In this document: in pieces, positions 15,240-34,157 of the stretch | Layout of the letters: every line of letters begins with the position of its first letter | Position numbering within the stretch: position 1 is the first letter of the stretch | Source of the DNA: Pseudomonadales bacterium | GTDB lineage: Bacteria > Patescibacteriota > Microgenomatia > UBA1400 > PJMF01 | Assembly (NCBI GenBank): GCA_020632265.1 | Contig: JACKFW010000001.1 | Span: 599,272 to 663,271 of the forward strand | Length of the DNA stretch: 64,000 bases | Direction: 5' to 3' | Translations under genes and position numbers: made by a program | Notes under the pieces: generated by a model | Databases searched by the model: none | What the model saw: the letters and a program-made list of their open reading frames with translations, nothing else | Told to the model about the DNA's origin: nothing

Positions 15240-15818
15240 TTAGGTTTTTAAGTTTTTGGTCCGTTTAATATTATCCAAATACATTTTCAAATTCGATAAT
15301 AAAAAATCTTGATTCTTGATTGCAGAGCTATCTTTACCTTTATCTTCCGCTGAATCAGCATCATTGCCAGCTGAATCAGCATCATTGCCAGCTGAATCAG
15401 CATCATTGCCAGCTGAACTAGCATCATTGCCAGCTGAATTGGTATTATTGCCAGCTGAACTAGTATTATTGCCAGCTGAACTAGCATCATTGCCAGCTGA
15501 ATTGGTACTATAATCATCAATCAAACTAGTTGAAGATTCATCTAAAATTTCAGGACCATCATAAGATGTAACATTTGGCTTTTTAACAGCAAAATCACTA
15601 TCTTCAAAATCTAACCCGTCAAATGAGAAATTTGATTTTTGTGACAACGAAGAATTTTCTGATTTAAAATATAAGGGGTCGATTCCATCGAGAGCATCAT
15701 CTTCCCCAACATTCAAAGTGCTATTAGCACTCATTCGCCTATCAACTTCTAGTTTTATGTATTCCTGCAACTCATGTTTAAAATTATCAAGAATTTTTTG
15801 GAGTTGATCATTATTCAT
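15240..15818 (-). CDS. Acidic low-complexity protein, 192 aa, with a tandem heptad repeat (SAGNDAD/SAGNNTS)n.
   Basis: ORF contains 7 copies of a 21-nt repeat. N-terminal 60 aa are non-repetitive. Confidence 0.5.
   Translation of the reverse strand: MNNDQLQKILDNFKHELQEYIKLEVDRRMSANSTLNVGEDDALDGIDPLYFKSENSSLSQKSNFSFDGLDFEDSDFAVKKPNVTSYDGPEILDESSTSLIDDYSTNSAGNDASSAGNNTSSAGNNTNSAGNDASSAGNDADSAGNDADSAGNDADSAEDKGKDSSAIKNQDFLLSNLKMYLDNIKRTKNLKT
15350..15500. repeat. 21-bp tandem repeat (gctgaatcagcatcattgcca), about 7 copies, in-frame within the CDS 15240-15818.
   Basis: Seen directly in the sequence. It produces mirror ORFs on both strands in the ORF track. Confidence 0.85.
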
Positions 15819-15986: not shown

Positions 15987-18191
15987 TTATATTGGACAAG
16001 CCCCACTCGCACATTTCAAATGCTCATAATCAATGTCTTCTGCCAATAATTCATCTTTTTCGATTTCATCAAGTACTCTCATGAATTCAGAAGTTGTCAC
16101 CGGCTGCTCAGGTTGGTATTCATAGGCAGTAGCATCTGTTTGAGGCATCACACTACAACATTTTATTCGACTTTGATATTTAATAATCATCTCAGAAAAT
16201 TCTTTATAGCCAACAATTTCCGGATTATATTTCAAGGTGTAGGAAACTTGATTGCCTGTATCCTCTTTGTTTATCTTGCCATCCTTATCAATACCAGTGA
16301 TCCAATATTTTTCCAACAATAATAACCATTTAAATTGTTCTTCGGGAGTTGCTTCGCCTGCGGTAACAAGTTCGCCGTTCATCCCAATTCTACAAATCAA
16401 AGGTTGAGTAGGAAATCCAACTGCAGTTGAGCCTTTATAACTTTGCAAAACTTTAACTGGATAACCTTTTTCTTTATATTTTTTTACCATTGGATCATCA
16501 CTCCTATATTGAACCCATCTTATATATTCGCGCATACTTGGCAAATGAGCCCCTTCAGTCAGAGCAAATAGCTTGGAAACGGTCCCAGATGGTTTAATCG
16601 TGGTATCAGTGTGCGGCGCAGTTACCCCTATCTTTTCAGAATAATTTCTTGCCTCTTCAACTATCGCATTTTTAAATCTTGCTAAGGTCAACCAAAATTC
16701 TTTTGATTTTTCCTCATCGATAAGATCTCTAAAAGCAAATCCATAAGTATTCCAAGCAAATTCGTGAATTCCAGTCATTCCTACGCCAATTCTGTTAGTT
16801 CTTTTTACTTCTCGAGAATATAAACAATCCATTGTGTTGACTCTGATCAGAGCTCTAACTGCGGCTCTAAACGCTTCTTCAGCATCATCAAGTGTAGGAG
16901 CGTGATAAGGAACAACGTCTGCAATCACACAATAACCACCCAACATATTTAATGAAATTTCCCCACAAGGATTAGGAATTTGTGAATACAATTTTGCAGA
17001 GGCATTTCGTGCAATTAAAGACAGCATCTTTTCTGTTCTTTGAGATGGTTTATATTTTTGACTTTCTGCATATTTACCGTCTTGATAATCATCATAACCG
17101 TCATCATTTTGAACTAATCGATGTTGATTAATAAAACCTGGCTCCCCAGTGCCATCATCATAACTAGCTTTCATGATAGCTTCTAAAACTTTTTTAGAAT
17201 GTTTTGTCCTTTGTTTCCAAAATTTTTCATCAACAGTGACGGAATTATTTGCCGACCATAAGAATCCACCCCTTTTGATATCAATAAACTCAAATACTTC
17301 TGGATCAGTCCAATTTTTAGTTGCAATTCTAGCGCTTCTTCTAGCACCACCGACTAAAACACATTCGGCCAAATAATGATCAATAAAAAGTGCTTGTTTC
17401 CAAAGAGGCATGTCTGCTCCTTTTATTGTAGCAACTCTCTCGATTGCGTTCATGATTGGTTTTGGTCCAGAAGCAGGTCTATTTTGCATTCCCCTAATCA
17501 CAGATCCTTTTTCTCTAACATCAGAAAAGTCTAAAATCAATAATTCATCCTTAAATTTTTTTTCATAAGCCATAACTTCCATCATTTCAATTGCTTGAGC
17601 CCAACCTTCACGACTGTCAGGAACTTTAAACCAGTGAATATTGTCACCTTTGCCATACTTATGTTCTGCGTCGCGAACACTCTCATCAAAACCCCAAACA
17701 AAATCTGGATGATCAGAAGAAATCACGCATCTTACGCTTGGCATATTATCCCAATTAACCACACACATATCATCGTCGTATGATCGTCCTACTCCAGATC
17801 CATTCATCAATAAGTAAAACACAATATAAGATGCTGAAGCTGTACTGCAGTTAGTAAAGACTTCCATATTTCTGTTGGGCTGAGTTTCATCTCCATGCTG
17901 TAAATGTCTGCCAGACATCAAAAGTGATGCATTAGCGATATGCTTTCTCAATACTTCATATTCTTCTTTTTGATGTTTTAAGCCCAATCCTTTGATGTTT
18001 TTTACTAACAAAGAATTTCCCAAGGCTACTCTATCAGCAACTTCTTTCCATTTTTCCCAACGCTCTCTACCCGTATCTTTGTCAGTAATTTTCCTCAAGT
18101 AGGTTCTTCGAGCAACAGCAACTCCCATGCCATTATCTAGTTTTCTATTGGTAAATTGCATTTGTTTTTTGGGAAGAGTTTTCTTATTCAT
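15987..18191 (-). CDS. nrdJ: Ribonucleoside reductase, class II (adenosylcobalamin-dependent NrdJ-type), 734 aa.
   Basis: Catalytic NPCGEI motif of class I/II RNRs. No glycine-radical RVCGY motif and no nrdB partner. C-terminal Cys pair CASGAC. Confidence 0.8.
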   Translation of the reverse strand: MNKKTLPKKQMQFTNRKLDNGMGVAVARRTYLRKITDKDTGRERWEKWKEVADRVALGNSLLVKNIKGLGLKHQKEEYEVLRKHIANASLLMSGRHLQHGDETQPNRNMEVFTNCSTASASYIVFYLLMNGSGVGRSYDDDMCVVNWDNMPSVRCVISSDHPDFVWGFDESVRDAEHKYGKGDNIHWFKVPDSREGWAQAIEMMEVMAYEKKFKDELLILDFSDVREKGSVIRGMQNRPASGPKPIMNAIERVATIKGADMPLWKQALFIDHYLAECVLVGGARRSARIATKNWTDPEVFEFIDIKRGGFLWSANNSVTVDEKFWKQRTKHSKKVLEAIMKASYDDGTGEPGFINQHRLVQNDDGYDDYQDGKYAESQKYKPSQRTEKMLSLIARNASAKLYSQIPNPCGEISLNMLGGYCVIADVVPYHAPTLDDAEEAFRAAVRALIRVNTMDCLYSREVKRTNRIGVGMTGIHEFAWNTYGFAFRDLIDEEKSKEFWLTLARFKNAIVEEARNYSEKIGVTAPHTDTTIKPSGTVSKLFALTEGAHLPSMREYIRWVQYRSDDPMVKKYKEKGYPVKVLQSYKGSTAVGFPTQPLICRIGMNGELVTAGEATPEEQFKWLLLLEKYWITGIDKDGKINKEDTGNQVSYTLKYNPEIVGYKEFSEMIIKYQSRIKCCSVMPQTDATAYEYQPEQPVTTSEFMRVLDEIEKDELLAEDIDYEHLKCASGACPI

Positions 18192-18219: not shown

Positions 18220-18669
18220 CTATTCTGTAAGTTTATTTAATTCTTCTTTAAAATCCTCAATGCTGTCAAAATCTCTATACACACTTGCAAAAAGTAAATA
18301 TGACAGTGTATCAACTTTTTTTAGTCTATTAATAACTAGATTTCCGATTTCCCAACTCTTAACTTCACTTGATTTTTTTTGCCTCAACATTCTCTCAACT
18401 TCATCAATTAAATCATCAATGTCTGACATTGATATTGGTCTTTTCCAGGTTGCTTTTGAAAGACCCCTTTTTAACTTTTCTCTAGAAAAATCCTCTTTAG
18501 AACCATCTTTTTTGATCACTTTTAAATCAATGCCCTCAATTCTTTCATAGGTAGTAAAACGTTTTGCACAACTGGAACAACTACGGCGCCTTCTAATTGT
18601 TGTCTGATCTTCAGCCTCGCGTGAGTCAATTACTGACGTTTCTGCCTTGCTACAATAAGGACATTTCAT
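18220..18669 (-). CDS. nrdR: Transcriptional repressor NrdR (zinc ribbon plus ATP cone), 149 aa.
   Basis: MKCPYCS...SVIDSR N-terminus and CSSCAKRF zinc ribbon. Located directly upstream of the RNR gene. Confidence 0.85.
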   Translation of the reverse strand: MKCPYCSKAETSVIDSREAEDQTTIRRRRSCSSCAKRFTTYERIEGIDLKVIKKDGSKEDFSREKLKRGLSKATWKRPISMSDIDDLIDEVERMLRQKKSSEVKSWEIGNLVINRLKKVDTLSYLLFASVYRDFDSIEDFKEELNKLTE

Positions 18670-18724
18670 ATTTTCCTTGTTAATCCCATATATACATTAA
18701 GTTGTATGTATTTAATGTATAAAC

Positions 18725-18738
18725 CACAATATCTTGTG
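18725..18738. promoter_or_regulatory. Candidate NrdR box (cacaatatcttgtg palindrome) upstream of nrdR.
   Basis: Resembles the acaCwAtATaTwGtgt NrdR operator. Lies about 55 nt upstream of the nrdR start. Confidence 0.3.
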
Positions 18739-18895
18739 TATTATTTTTTTTAGGAATATAAGAATCTCATGCTTTTAGAATGTGGTCAACCAAAACAAAA
18801 TATATCAAAATGATTTAAATATCAAATAGATATGATTGAAATTTAATACAAAAAATACCCAAAAATAGAATAAAAACTTATGAGTCAGGAAATTT

Positions 18896-18940
18896 TAAAT
18901 TTAGTTTTTTAAATTTAGTTATTTAAATTTAGTTATTTAA
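18896..18940. repeat. Three tandem copies of a 15-nt unit (aaatttagttattt), overlapping the 3' end of CDS 18929-19462.
   Basis: Seen directly in the sequence. Confidence 0.5.
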
Positions 18941-19462
18941 CTTTATGATTAATGCGTCTAATTCCACTAACAAAGATTCAATTGGAGATGTGTCAACTCT
19001 CTCAAAATTGTCTTTACATTTCTTTAACTCCCTGGAATTATTTTCTAATGATCTTAATAGATCTTTTTTGACTGATTCCTGTTGATTATCACTGTTTAGA
19101 AATTCTTGAGCAGCGTTAATTAAATACTTTTGGGCTTTAGTCATAGTTGATAAAGCTAGTTCTTCTTGATCATTATTTATCAGGACTTTAGAACTATATA
19201 GTCTATCGTCTGCTAATCTCATTTGAACATATATTTTTCGATTGCCAAATGATGACTGCAAAATTATTCTGTCAGCAACCATTAAAATCGGATATAAAAC
19301 ATGATCGGGTAAAATTGTCTTTCCCACATAAAATTTTCGCTCACTAACTCTTAGTGAATTTTCAGATCTAATTTGTGAAGCCATTATTAGAGAAACCCCA
19401 AAAATAAAAAGGGCAATTATTAACGCCAAACCAGACATCATCAACTTTGTTTTCTTAGCCAT
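18929..19462 (-). CDS. Membrane-anchored hypothetical protein, 177 aa. N-terminal TM helix, soluble C-terminal domain.
   Basis: Complete ORF. Last gene of a four-gene minus-strand module. Confidence 0.45.
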   Translation of the reverse strand: MAKKTKLMMSGLALIIALFIFGVSLIMASQIRSENSLRVSERKFYVGKTILPDHVLYPILMVADRIILQSSFGNRKIYVQMRLADDRLYSSKVLINNDQEELALSTMTKAQKYLINAAQEFLNSDNQQESVKKDLLRSLENNSRELKKCKDNFERVDTSPIESLLVELDALIIKLNN

Positions 19463-19523
19463 GAACGATAGATTGTAGCACTAAAAAAGTTTTATTCAAA
19501 TAAAAACTATTGGGAGAAAATCT

Positions 19524-20225
19524 CTAAAAACCGCTATGAACTAGTAAAACCATTCCCCAAATAGCATGAGATAAAACAAGGGCAAAAGAATTTCTTCTAG
19601 TATAAAATAAAAATCCTTGTCCAATTGCAAATAAGAATAAAATAAATATTTGCGGTAAAACCAAAGAAGCATCATATCTTAAGAGAATATTTGGAATGTG
19701 AAATAATAGAAATATTATCGAAACAAGCAATACCTGAGATGTCATAGACCAAGTTTTAAATTTTTCTTGAATAACGGTCATTACAAAACTAAAAAATAAC
19801 AAAGTTTCCCAAAATGCAGTAAACAAGGCTAGTGCAAATTCATACCAAAAAATATTTGAGTCGAAAAGAGACACCGCCTCTACCGTTGCTTCATTTTGAA
19901 TAATAGTTAAAATTGAAAATACAAAACCCAAAACTCCGCCAACAGTAATTCCAAGCAGTAATCCACTTTTCATTTTTCGAGCAGCAAAAGTATCGGTAAT
20001 TGATTCTGTTTGAGTAATGCTGATATATAACCACACTGGAAGCCCAAAAAATACTGCTTTACCAAGAGTTTCATCAAACCAAACTGGAAAATTAAATAAC
20101 ATTCTGTATAAAACCCAAAAAATAAAAACCAAAATCAGTAAAGGAAAAAAAACAACATTAGCACTACCATTTTTGTTTTTCAAAACATTTGTAGTGGCTT
20201 TATTTTGTGATTGCATCGATAACAA
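19524..20225 (-). CDS. CPBP/Abi-family (CAAX protease-like) intramembrane protein with partly degenerate motifs, 233 aa.
   Basis: About 6 TM helices. FWETLLF stands in place of EExxxR, FLLFH matches FxxxH, and HAIWG stands in place of HxxxN. No Cys, so it is not an exosortase. Confidence 0.4.
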   Translation of the reverse strand: MLSMQSQNKATTNVLKNKNGSANVVFFPLLILVFIFWVLYRMLFNFPVWFDETLGKAVFFGLPVWLYISITQTESITDTFAARKMKSGLLLGITVGGVLGFVFSILTIIQNEATVEAVSLFDSNIFWYEFALALFTAFWETLLFFSFVMTVIQEKFKTWSMTSQVLLVSIIFLLFHIPNILLRYDASLVLPQIFILFLFAIGQGFLFYTRRNSFALVLSHAIWGMVLLVHSGF

Positions 20226-20895
20226 TTTGTAATGTTTTCTGTTGATTGGCTGAATATGTATCTATAATTACATCGTATAGATTTGGACGCCAAAAATCAA
20301 TTGGATCACTAGCTTTTGCTTTGCCAGTTTTAACTACCCACTCATTCCATTCATTAGCATACACTCTTTTCCACTTAGTAAGATTATTGACGTACCTCTC
20401 CTGCATATTTTTAATTGCTTCTCCTGGAGTAACAACGTCTCGATTCACAATTCTATCAACTTTCACTGCCTTATCACTACAAATCATTAAAACCTTTAAG
20501 GTTCCTTCAATATTTTGAGCCATAAAACCTGACAACCATGATTCAATTATCCACCCACTTTCATTGCTCAATTTCTCTCTCATACCAAAGTCTACTTTTC
20601 TATCAAAATCATCTTCATAATGTGAAGCATCATGATGCAAGCCATTTTGCTCAACAAATAACCCTTTTTCTTTGGCGTAGGCTCTCATGAATTCGCCACC
20701 ACTAAAACCAGTCCAACCAGCAAATTTTAGCGCCTCATGTTTTTTTAACTTATTTAATAAAGTCGTTGAACCACTTCCTGGCAAACCAGAAATTGTAATA
20801 TTCTTAAATTTGAAATCATCCCCAGGAGATTTAGGTGACATCATATTTCCTTTATTTTGAAATGTTACTATTCGCTTGGGTATTTCCAAAATCAA
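20200..20895 (-). CDS. Cytidylate-kinase-like (NMP kinase fold) protein with a lysine-less P-loop, probably a pseudokinase or nucleotide-binding protein. 231 aa; the real start is possibly the internal Met at codon 18-19.
   Basis: ITISGLPGSGSTTL aligns with the Cmk ITIDGPSGAGKGT motif, but the Walker A lysine is replaced by Ser. A bona fide cmk gene exists elsewhere in the window. Confidence 0.45.
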   Translation of the reverse strand: MILEIPKRIVTFQNKGNMMSPKSPGDDFKFKNITISGLPGSGSTTLLNKLKKHEALKFAGWTGFSGGEFMRAYAKEKGLFVEQNGLHHDASHYEDDFDRKVDFGMREKLSNESGWIIESWLSGFMAQNIEGTLKVLMICSDKAVKVDRIVNRDVVTPGEAIKNMQERYVNNLTKWKRVYANEWNEWVVKTGKAKASDPIDFWRPNLYDVIIDTYSANQQKTLQIVIDAITK

Positions 20896-21367
20896 CTTGA
20901 CATTCTACCAAAGATTTCATTGAATTGCTCAATTGCATTAATTTATTACCAGCCTCATCTAATGAAATAATATTATCATCATTCACATAATAATGAAAAA
21001 CTCTATTTCTGCATTGTAACCAAGTTTCCCAAAGATCTCGAGCCAATTCCACTCCGCAAATTTGTTCAAGATCATCAAAAAGCCAATACTTATCTCGCTG
21101 ATTTTCGTGCACATCGGGATTTAATGCTTTACCAATGCGAAATCTTTTCCCTTCATAAGTCTTGATATCAATTATTCTTAAATCTAGAAAACTTGTCTTT
21201 AAAAAGCCTTCATAAGCTTTAGACATTGGAAAAACAATAAAAGAATAATCCTCGAGATCTGATTTTAATTCATACTCTCTCTCATATAAATCAACGGCAG
21301 TGCGAACCAGGCGCCTGTGTCTGTCGTTCATAAATGAAAACCAACTATTATCTAAGATATGTCTCAT
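20852..21367 (-). CDS. HEPN-like protein with an Rx4HxY motif (RNRVFHYY), putative RNase or toxin component, 171 aa.
   Basis: A C-terminal R-N-x3-H-x-Y matches the HepT/DUF86-type HEPN active-site signature. Gene end abuts or overlaps the Cmk-like gene. Confidence 0.35.
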   Translation of the reverse strand: MRHILDNSWFSFMNDRHRRLVRTAVDLYEREYELKSDLEDYSFIVFPMSKAYEGFLKTSFLDLRIIDIKTYEGKRFRIGKALNPDVHENQRDKYWLFDDLEQICGVELARDLWETWLQCRNRVFHYYVNDDNIISLDEAGNKLMQLSNSMKSLVECQVDFGNTQANSNISK

Positions 21368-28773: not shown

Positions 28774-28998
28774 TTAATTTCTACTAAAACGACTGACTAA
28801 GAATGAAATAATTATTGTAATAATTAGTAAAATTGGAGCTACTAATTTCTCAATTTGCTGTTGTTTTTTTTTCTTTTCTTTAAGAAGCTTTTTTTCTAAA
28901 CGCTCTCTTTGTTTTTCATGCTTATCTTCCTCAATTCTTTGAGTCTTTTTAATTAACTCTTCATTAGAATAATCTGCTGAGGAATGTCTTTTCTTCAT
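28774..28998 (-). CDS. Small basic protein with a C-terminal TM helix, 74 aa, translationally coupled to cmk.
   Basis: ATGA overlap with the cmk stop. KR-rich N-terminal part, hydrophobic C-terminus. Confidence 0.35.
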   Translation of the reverse strand: MKKRHSSADYSNEELIKKTQRIEEDKHEKQRERLEKKLLKEKKKKQQQIEKLVAPILLIITIIISFLVSRFSRN

Positions 28999-29705
28999 AA
29001 TCGCACATCTCTCATAACTGTAGCTTTCGCAACTATTAAATCAACAACCTGTCTAATTGATAAATCCGTAGTATCTACTATCCAAGCATCATCAACTATT
29101 TTTAAAGGATCATTTTGTCTTTCAGAATCGAGTTTATCACGACTTATCAAGTCCAAATATACTTGATTAAAAGAAATATCTACTCCTCGACTTTGTAACT
29201 GAATATGTCGACGATTAGCTCGAACAAAATCTTTACCAGTCAAATATATTTTAAGATTTGCATTGGGCAAGACTCTATAGGTAATATCTCTACCCTCCAT
29301 AACAACGTTTTGATTGGCAGCTATATGTTGCTGTTTTTCAACAAGTACTAGTCTAACAGACATAATTTGTGCTACTTTTGAAGCACCATTTCCCACTTCT
29401 TCGCTCCTAATTTTCCATGAAACATCTTTGTCGTCAACAATCACCGTGGTAAGACGACCATCTTTTTCGAAATCAATAGGATTACGCATTTGAATATCAG
29501 CGTTTCTAATCAAATTTACAATTTTTTCTTCATCATGAAAATCTACTTTGTTTTGAAGAGCTAATAACGATGCAACTCGATACATTGCTCCCGTATCAAC
29601 ATACAAAAAACCTAATCTATCTGCTACTAATCTAGAAACAGTTCCTTTTCCAGCAGCCACAGGACCATCGATCGCAATATGAAATAATTTTTCTTCGCTA
29701 CTCAT
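28995..29705 (-). CDS. cmk: Cytidylate kinase, 236 aa.
   Basis: IAIDGPVAAGKGTVSRLVA P-loop and Cmk-like overall layout. Confidence 0.85.
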   Translation of the reverse strand: MSSEEKLFHIAIDGPVAAGKGTVSRLVADRLGFLYVDTGAMYRVASLLALQNKVDFHDEEKIVNLIRNADIQMRNPIDFEKDGRLTTVIVDDKDVSWKIRSEEVGNGASKVAQIMSVRLVLVEKQQHIAANQNVVMEGRDITYRVLPNANLKIYLTGKDFVRANRRHIQLQSRGVDISFNQVYLDLISRDKLDSERQNDPLKIVDDAWIVDTTDLSIRQVVDLIVAKATVMRDVRL

Positions 29706-33518: not shown

Positions 33519-34157
33519 TCAAGTAAGTGAAGAACTATTTAATCTGGAGTTGTTGGCTTTTAATTTTAGATTATTAACCTCGAAATCAGTGGATTCCATA
33601 AAAAAATCTTCAAGCATTTCCTGACAACTTTTATAAAAATCAAATATCGAGGAATTATTAACGAGTTTATAATCTGCTAACTCCAAACACTCTGAAACTT
33701 GTTGACCATTACCATCTTCACCTACGCCTAAATCTCTTGCATCAACTTGCTTAAACTTAGAAGCAGATGCTGAATCCTCACCCCTAACTTTAGCTCTTTC
33801 TATATATCTTTCTAAACGTCGATTTTTATAAGCAGAAATATGCACAATTTTTCCACCCAAACTATCCTTAATTGTCACAACTTCTTGAGGATTTCTCACA
33901 CCGTCAATTACCACTAAATCATGTTTTTTTATTTCATTTGCAATTTTTTCAACAAGTACGGCGCCACCAAAGCTTTCTCTTAAATCATTGCCTACATCTT
34001 GTAAGTTCTTTCTCGTCATTGCTAAACCACGAGCTTGAGCTTCGTTTCTCACTACATCAGAAAGAGAGAAATATTTAAATCCCTTTGATTTCAAAAACTC
34101 AGAAATGGTTCCTTTTCCGCTAGCAATTGGTCCAACTAAAGCAATAATAATTTTCAT
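33519..34157 (-). CDS. P-loop nucleoside-monophosphate-kinase-like protein (adenylate/cytidylate kinase fold), 212 aa.
   Basis: GPIASGKGT Walker A in an NMP-kinase context. LID and NMP-binding signatures are not clearly canonical. Confidence 0.5.
   Translation of the reverse strand: MKIIIALVGPIASGKGTISEFLKSKGFKYFSLSDVVRNEAQARGLAMTRKNLQDVGNDLRESFGGAVLVEKIANEIKKHDLVVIDGVRNPQEVVTIKDSLGGKIVHISAYKNRRLERYIERAKVRGEDSASASKFKQVDARDLGVGEDGNGQQVSECLELADYKLVNNSSIFDFYKSCQEMLEDFFMESTDFEVNNLKLKANNSRLNSSSLT

Follow-up and report, generated by a model that had tools for sequence, protein, structure and literature searches.

Four co-oriented genes, here called g1 to g4, lie on the minus strand at positions 18929-21367 of a 64-kb window, the whole stretch of DNA analysed (64,000 nucleotides of contig JACKFW010000001.1). 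The GC content of the window is about 31%, and it carries housekeeping genes typical of the candidate phyla radiation (CPR, Patescibacteria). A sequence-only reading of this DNA had described the four genes as one module, in which a HepT-type HEPN protein is paired with a kinase-like protein and accompanied by a membrane protease and a membrane-anchored protein. All four open reading frames are present as described, the start of g2 having been corrected to 20844. We find that g1, g2 and g3 form a conserved unit, which we tentatively interpret as an operon for RNA turnover and nucleotide salvage. All results come from sequences and structure predictions, and the genomes used were assembled from metagenomes. 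The genes of the locus are as follows.

20852-21367, minus strand: g1, HEPN protein, 171 aa (Pfam, AlphaFold 2, Foldseek, alignments)
20200-20844, minus strand: g2, nucleoside monophosphate (NMP)-kinase-fold protein, 214 aa (NCBIfam and Pfam, AlphaFold 2, Foldseek, alignments)
19524-20216 (alternative start 20225), minus strand: g3, CPBP/Rce1-like polytopic membrane protein, about 230 aa (Pfam PF02517)
18929-19462, minus strand: g4, N-terminally anchored DUF5667 protein, 177 aa (Pfam DUF5667)
18220-18669, minus strand: nrdR (TIGR00244)
15987-18191, minus strand: B12-dependent class II ribonucleotide reductase, RNR (TIGR02505)

Proteins encoded by g1, g2 and g3

The g1 protein carries the motif C-R120-N-R-V-F-H125-YY (RNRVFHYY). 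At least 114 of 120 close homologues and 41 of 42 distant ones retain a motif of the RNxxFH type, and R120, N121, F124 and H125 are invariant in the family alignment together with K50 and E53. The earlier identification of a HEPN protein with conserved R120 and H125 is borne out by these figures, its assignment to the HepT type is not. Judged by its sequence, g1 falls into the RnlA/LsoA subfamily of HEPN proteins (RNase LS; PF19034, PF18869) and consists of the HEPN domain alone. Among 32 diverse members of the g1 family 28 match RnlA-toxin_DBD and 26 match HEPN_RnaseLS (E<0.01; best 1.5e-6), only one matches the HepT-like family (PF01934), and the HepT type is ruled out by these counts. Like the HEPN protein of HepT-MntA, g1 is small and has one domain with an Rx4H motif; it differs from that system in its family matches, in not being mobile and in its neighbours, as neither its surroundings in the window nor the Pfam-annotated contigs showed an MNT nucleotidyltransferase. 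The g1 protein of the window is itself sub-threshold for both Pfam families, PF18869 and PF19034, with 22.1 bits (cut-off 29) and 19.5 bits (cut-off 27). Its match to HEPN_RnaseLS has an E-value of 2e-4 and is also under the gathering cut-off.

The AlphaFold 2 model of g1 is all-helical, with a predicted local distance difference test score (pLDDT) of 95 and a predicted template modelling score (pTM) of 0.89. The top matches of this model in a Foldseek search of the PDB are HEPN structures, namely TT1696, LsoA (probability 0.99, TMq 0.58), RnlA (probability 0.96, TMq 0.60) and AF0298; the E-values are all above 0.1 and none is significant. A profile of the g1 family has LsoA as its sole match in the PDB (E 0.73), with both conserved blocks colinear. 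Aligned to Escherichia coli RnlA with hhalign, residues 36-66 of g1 pair with residues 241-271 of RnlA. Together with the alignment to LsoA, which covers both motifs, this sets K50 against R255, E53 to E258, D40 to D245 and R120/H125 to R318/H323. R255, E258, R318 and H323 of RnlA are essential for its activity, and R255 and E258 are specific to the RnlA/LsoA subfamily (PMC8266594). The position of R255 is occupied by a lysine in g1, which is a conservative exchange. Because the counterparts of these four essential residues are conserved and most members of the family match the RnlA/RNase LS models, we call g1 an RnlA/LsoA-type HEPN protein and a probable endoribonuclease; it is very probably an active, metal-independent one.

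RnlA and LsoA differ from g1 in several respects. The 171 residues of g1 hold the HEPN domain only, the N-terminal TBP-like and RNase-H-like domains are not present, and the gene downstream encodes a P-loop kinase fold and not an RnlB or LsoB antitoxin. The gene is chromosomal, vertically inherited and not associated with phages. In a survey of HEPN domains from 2013, RNase LS was found only with RNase-H or TBP fusions and with RnlB (PMC3710099). What appears to be new here is thus a domain-minimal branch of RnlA/LsoA HEPN proteins in a setting other than toxin-antitoxin (TA) systems.

One orthologue of g1 (L168:2080-2436), of 118 aa, has lost the RNxxFH helix in frame; the kinase and CPBP genes are still next to it. 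A catalytically dead g1 lineage was considered for this locus and rejected, as the 96%-identical P0392 keeps CRNKLFH and there are only two such sequences. Going by the sequences, the loss is a single case confined to L168, caused by a deletion or by a variant of the assembly.

The longest reading frame of g2 spans 20200-20895 and begins with TTG (231 aa). Homologues align from the ATG at 20844, which is preceded by AGGA as ribosome-binding site, and the start was reassigned to this ATG; it lies 7 nt past the stop codon of g1. All Pfam and NCBIfam matches of g2 are confined to the NMP-kinase and AAA_17/18 families, with no match to Clp1/Grc3/PNK-type models. The protein scores 68.1 bits against the archaeal (d)CMP kinase family TIGR02173 (E 8.7e-19, residues 33-188 of the 231-aa reading frame), not reaching the cut-off of 102.1, and 34.7 bits against AAA_17, over the cut-off of 27. 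Sister kinases from CPR genomes score 67-84 bits against TIGR02173. The AlphaFold 2 model of g2 (pLDDT 91) has 204 PDB matches at E<=0.001 in Foldseek, and those among the matches listed are all P-loop kinases. The best are the putative Cytidylate_kin2-like (PF13189) kinases 3hdt and 3fdi (E 3e-8 to 2e-7). Most g2 homologues match PF13189; the sequence identity of g2 to 3hdt and 3fdi is only 16-18%, and both are themselves uncharacterised. Further matches include Fap7, APS kinase, Methanococcus adenylate kinase and shikimate kinase.

The P-loop of g2, GLPGSGSTT, has no Walker A lysine, and a lysine-less GxPGxGST P-loop is found in 119 of 120 homologues. The earlier reading of an NMP-kinase fold without this lysine is therefore correct. 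Its further step, that g2 is a pseudokinase, is not supported by the relatives of the protein. Sequences that score 166-224 bits against TIGR02173 carry GLPGSGTT or GLPGAGTT, others GPPGSGKT, and the crystallised Methanococcus adenylate kinases (1kht, 1ki9, 6pjw) have GVPGVGSTT or GVPGVGGTT. The Methanococcus enzymes are known to be active. Structures of them with bound AMP and Ap5A have been described (PMC10883716). In addition, g2 and the archaeal CMP kinases share R54, D85, R131, R135 and R150 without variation, and three of these (R131, R135, R150) are LID-type arginines, which bind phosphate; the LID-like motif of g2 is DRIVNRD. Since the lysine-less P-loop is a family trait shared with high TIGR02173 scorers and the Methanococcus adenylate kinases, and the LID arginines are invariant, the missing lysine is no sign of inactivation and a pseudokinase is not supported. 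Archaeal-type CMP and AMP kinases as a rule lack the Walker lysine, which calls for caution in naming pseudokinases.

By these sequence features g2 belongs to a divergent CPR branch of the archaeal-type CMP/AMP kinase lineage, with which it shares the fold, the lysine-less GxPGxG[STG]T loop, a GGE/D-F-R acceptor motif and the LID arginines. We predict that it is an active phosphotransferase on nucleoside monophosphates. It departs from the TIGR02173 kinases in its score (68 against 102 bits) and in its acceptor site, where g2 and the sister CPR kinases have an invariant Trp103 ('ESWLSGF') in place of the arginine of 'EGRL' and the CPR kinases carry an HH insert (70-71). We leave the acceptor of g2 unassigned because of these departures. 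The g2 clade has an extra W-rich insert of 17 aa (163-180). This insert was considered as a mark of partnership with g1 and g3, an idea that was rejected: the kinase of L168 lacks it and has both partners, and P0243 has it with no CPBP gene downstream.

In a library of 1.84 billion representative sequences the g2 clade forms one 50% cluster, and 681 representatives match at E<=0.001. Domains fused to g2-like kinases are GAF, RNHCP, NUDIX and ribulose-phosphate epimerase, and tandem-kinase proteins also occur; fusions to HEPN or CPBP domains were looked for and none was among the fusions found. The representatives concerned are P0290, P0264, P0300 and P0329/P0357 (NUDIX, ribulose-phosphate epimerase-like, RNHCP zinc-ribbon, membrane-anchored GAF). 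These fused relatives hint that the wider kinase family takes part in ligand sensing and in the metabolism of nucleotides or sugar phosphates.

The g3 protein matches the Rce1-like/CPBP family (PF02517) with 34.7 bits, over the gathering cut-off of 22.4, and its ATG at 20216 overlaps the end of g2 by 17 nt. Complete CPBP proteins have the catalytic motifs EExxxR, FxxxH and HxxxN/D. In g3 the first glutamate (E140) is present in 76 of 76 orthologues, and the second glutamate and the arginine of this motif are not present. F172xxxH176 is found in 75 of the 76. Residue 220, of the third motif, is histidine in 42 orthologues and glutamine in 34, and the asparagine position is an invariant glycine (Gly224). 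Additional motifs, YR, FDE..GK and GQ, are invariant across the orthologues. As the sequence-only reading had proposed, g3 is, to judge from its motifs, a CPBP-fold membrane protein with a partly degenerate active site. A further difference from the CPBP proteases is its translational coupling to a kinase-fold protein. Non-catalytic regulators of the CPBP family, such as SpdC and Abx1, are known.

Gene neighbourhood and inheritance

When one genome per GTDB species was scanned, g1 was found in 166 species, and the loci of the best 80 of these were inspected together with a handful of distant g1 lineages. In about 75 of the 80 species loci, and on further contigs, g1-g2-g3-g4-nrdR-RNR run in series on the strand opposite GH18 and PBP1A. 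The remaining loci are cut off by the end of the contig or have a 3.7-kb insertion (L024) or a rearrangement (L063). The block is a single-copy, fixed locus between PBP1A and DUF5667-nrdR-RNR. Within it the g2-g3 junction is the tightest (median -8 nt, 75 loci) and the g4-nrdR spacing the loosest (median about 155 nt).

In one subclade (L036, L045, L053, L076) the flanks are changed and g1-g2-g3 are still contiguous. An RNase J gene takes the place of g4 here, and in L053 an ABC transporter lies upstream of the trio. These loci (for example L053:9987-11636) thus encode a HEPN protein, a kinase, a CPBP protein and a 5'-3' exonuclease in series, the RNase J gene following g3 directly.

Distant relatives of g1 are 35-47% identical. 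The order g1-g2-g3 is found in four of these lineages (L168, L170, L171, L175), with DUF5667 directly next in L171 and L175. In L172 and L174 the arrangement is g1-DUF5667-nrdR-RNR, the kinase and CPBP genes being gone, and in L173 g1 stands by itself in an unrelated context. A scan of metagenomes with an alignment of four kinase sequences gave 80 loci (L081-L160) with a g2-like kinase, 35-47% identical, and without g1-like or g3-like genes, as judged by family hidden Markov models (HMMs) at E<1e-3. Within 5 kb of these sister kinases a phosphoribosyltransferase is found in 34 loci, an HD-domain protein in 27, DUF5667 in 21 and adenosine deaminase in six. The nrdR gene is also near sister kinases, with RNR next where the contigs reach far enough. 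The architectures assigned to the distant and sister loci were rechecked with the family HMMs.

The trio g1-g2-g3 is therefore a unit that is kept across deep divergence and turnover of its flanks. Among the loci inspected g3 was found only alongside both g1 and g2. Since the trio is stable in this way and g3 occurs only with both partners, some functional link between the three genes is likely; the pairing of g1 and g2 is not obligate, because g1 persists without g2 and g3 and g2-like kinases persist without g1 and g3.

The fourth gene of the supposed module does not share this history. It encodes a DUF5667 protein (29.5 bits, over the cut-off of 27) with an N-terminal transmembrane helix, in agreement with the earlier description of a membrane-anchored protein. 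The start of g4 lies 61 nt past g3, and a promoter-like site was found in this gap by a consensus scan (19499-19472). The gene directly follows g1 in L172 and L174, and it follows the g2-like kinase in sister loci without g1 and g3. It is the fastest-evolving gene of the block. We conclude that g4 adjoins the trio and belongs to the DUF5667-nrdR-RNR backbone, so that of the four-gene module the conserved operon g1-g2-g3 remains.

Kimura distances are 0.50 for g2, 0.51 for PBP1A, 0.85 for g1 and 0.88 for g3; g1 and g3 diverge faster than g2, yet they are clearly constrained. A mirror-tree comparison leaves a weak g1-g2 residual (r = 0.36, Mantel p ~5e-4), with partial correlations no higher than for g2 and NrdR. 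No relatives of g1 were found in the 2.9 million viral contigs of IMG/VR or in 50,697 GenBank phage records. In PADLOC g1 and g3 match no defence-system model, and g2 has a weak match to the kinase part of viperin-kinase fusions. These observations fit vertical inheritance of g1-g2-g3 as core-type genes rather than as a mobile conflict system. The catalytic core of RnlA/LsoA, known from mobile TA and anti-phage toxins, would here be inherited vertically among genes for the cell wall and for deoxynucleotide synthesis. Such a setting suggests that a HEPN RNase has been domesticated for a housekeeping role, in bacteria whose machinery for degrading RNA is little understood.

Possible functions of the trio

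We hypothesise, with some reserve, that g1-g2-g3 is a vertically inherited housekeeping operon for RNA turnover and nucleotide salvage in this lineage of the Microgenomates group (CPR/Patescibacteria). The g1 protein would cut cellular RNA as an endoribonuclease and g2 would phosphorylate nucleoside monophosphates. A chain would then lead from RNA to NMPs, on to the nucleoside di- and triphosphates (NDPs and NTPs) and from these to dNTPs through the adjacent NrdR-controlled, B12-dependent reductase, and g3 may anchor or modulate this activity at the membrane. CPR organisms largely lack de novo nucleotide synthesis, and a salvage operon would suit such hosts for this reason. The context of the sister kinases, which includes phosphoribosyltransferase, HD, adenosine deaminase, NrdR and RNR genes, speaks for salvage. 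With its altered acceptor site and its phosphoribosyltransferase, HD, nrdR and RNR neighbours, the g2 kinase family is a candidate to fill a gap in the nucleotide salvage of CPR bacteria. In the literature searched we found no relevant report on salvage in CPR bacteria and no paper that links HEPN with cytidylate-kinase-like or CPBP proteins, in line with the earlier remark that the system is not a described one.

Several points weigh against a salvage operon. HEPN RNases leave 2',3'-cyclic-phosphate and 5'-OH ends and not 5'-NMPs, so extra enzymes would have to link the step of g1 to that of g2. Both activities, RNase and kinase, are predicted, as are the substrates, and as noted above the g1 protein of the window is sub-threshold in Pfam and its Foldseek E-values to HEPN structures exceed 0.1. 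The g2 protein may not act on NMPs at all, as the arginine of the archaeal CMP kinase 'EGRL' is lost. The role of g3 is left unexplained by a salvage model. The whole region is syntenic, which makes adjacency a weak sign of coupling, and the co-evolution residual of g1 and g2 is not above that of g2 and NrdR.

The last two points would also serve a rather doubtful account without direct coupling, in which the three proteins have independent housekeeping roles, one in the decay of RNA, one in phosphorylating nucleotides and one in proteolysis or scaffolding at the membrane, and the gene order is simply inherited. The entire 12-kb block is syntenic, including PBP1A, GH18, nrdR and RNR, the partial correlations of evolutionary distance are not specific to g1 and g2, and g1 occurs without g2 and g3 (L172, L174, L173) as g2-like kinases do without g1 and g3 (80 loci). 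However, the trio remains contiguous where both flanks are replaced and where g1 is only about 40-45% identical, g1 and g2 are 7 nt apart, overlap of g2 and g3 is the rule (median -8 nt), and g3 is observed solely with g1 and g2 together. It is improbable, in our view, that the trio is a module similar to Las1-Grc3, in which the HEPN protein leaves a 5'-OH, g2 phosphorylates this end and RNase J then degrades or trims the RNA. The 5'-OH product is established HEPN chemistry, the acceptor site of g2 is unlike that of NMP kinases (Trp103, HH insert, W-rich insert 163-180), Fap7 and further P-loop kinases that are not NMP kinases are among its structural neighbours, and RNase J directly follows g3 in L036, L045, L053 and L076. 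Las1-Grc3, covered in PMC10942766, is a eukaryotic pairing of a HEPN nuclease with a polynucleotide kinase. Both systems pair a HEPN nuclease with a P-loop kinase, but g2 is outside the Clp1/Grc3 family and its best family is the archaeal CMP kinases, orthologous kinases without a HEPN partner sit among nucleotide-salvage genes, the RNase J adjacency is restricted to one subclade, and some lineages have g1 without the kinase. Should this improbable account nevertheless apply, the trio could by analogy be a bacterial counterpart of Las1-Grc3-Rat1 logic, with decay or maturation by RNase J and a CPBP-like membrane tether, and it would represent a previously unknown RNA-processing pathway in CPR bacteria.

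The sequence-only reading had offered, as one option, a TA or abortive-infection (Abi) system. In such a system g1 would be an RnlA-like toxin, g2 its neutraliser and g3 an Abi-type membrane effector or immunity protein. The HEPN domains of RnlA and LsoA are classic TA and anti-phage toxins (PMC3710099, PMC8266594), the toxin-first order is that of rnlA-rnlB, sister clades have TA pairs (PIN and others) at the corresponding position, and there is the weak residual co-evolution of g1 and g2. We nevertheless regard such a system as quite improbable, and the earlier suggestion is not upheld. The locus is single-copy, fixed and vertically inherited in about 75 of 80 species, it has no relatives among the viral contigs and phage records searched, and g1 and g3 have no PADLOC match. 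Moreover, g1 survives with an intact catalytic motif without g2 and g3 (L172, L174, L173), g2 orthologues survive without g1, and g2 is as conserved as PBP1A, unlike antitoxins. Since each gene persists without the other and the motif of g1 remains intact, g2 is no obligate antitoxin and g1 no obligate partner. A dead nucleotide sensor in g2 that allosterically controls the HEPN RNase, following the logic of RNase L and Ire1 over two genes, an analogy drawn in the sequence-only reading, is very improbable. It would account for the missing Walker lysine and the tight coupling of g1 and g2, but the loss of the lysine is ancestral in a family with accepted kinases, the LID arginines are invariant and each gene is found without the other. 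On the salvage hypothesis, which we continue to prefer, g2 is not a dead kinase, nor is it dedicated to the role of an antitoxin.

Flanking genes and further observations

The nrdR gene lies downstream of g4 on the same strand, at a distance of about 260 nt, and matches TIGR00244 with 186.5 bits, over the cut-off. The class II RNR scores 247 bits against TIGR02505, the monomeric B12-dependent ribonucleoside-triphosphate reductase, which is under the cut-off of 340, and is RTPR-like. Because this is the closest model, the RNR of the window may reduce NTPs rather than NDPs. Upstream of nrdR (18669), at 18690-18770 on the minus strand, the palindromic stretches 'acacaagatattgtggt' and 'tacatacaacttaatgtata' resemble NrdR boxes. 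If these boxes are real, nrdR and RNR would be autoregulated from their own promoter, apart from g1-g4.

TA-like pairs of a PIN toxin and an antitoxin were seen upstream of the kinase in two sister loci (L156:5181-5841, L086:5333-5925) and upstream of g1 in L172 (1374-2001 and 4330-4961). The slot beside the gene block may be an insertion hotspot for TA systems.

Three further genes of the window are listed here.

28995-29705: bacterial cmk (TIGR00017, 229.7 bits, cut-off 135.6)
33519-34157, minus strand: P-loop kinase, 212 aa (NCBIfam 'anti-phage dCTP deaminase', PRK08356)
15240-15818, minus strand: SAGN(D/N)(A/T)-repeat protein, 192 aa, with the low-complexity run 'SSAGNNTSSAGNNTNSAGNDASSAGNDADSAGNDAD'

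The score of the first confirms that a genuine cmk is present separately from g2. The second (IALVGPIASGKGT) is a third nucleotide-kinase-like gene in the window; besides PRK08356 it matches 'anti-phage dCTP deaminase' (E 5.5e-13) over the N-terminal portion of that model, which is kinase-like. An Rfam scan of the 64-kb window (1-64000) gave zero families at gathering score.

Many of the loci that carry the block (L003, L005-L007 and others) come from records titled 'uncultured Pseudomonadales bacterium'. L062 and L024 bear other odd labels, one record being called a TM6 complete genome (CP011212) while the other is a 'Vitreimonas sp.' contig of 1.4 Mb. Such record labels look like taxonomy errors or mis-binning.

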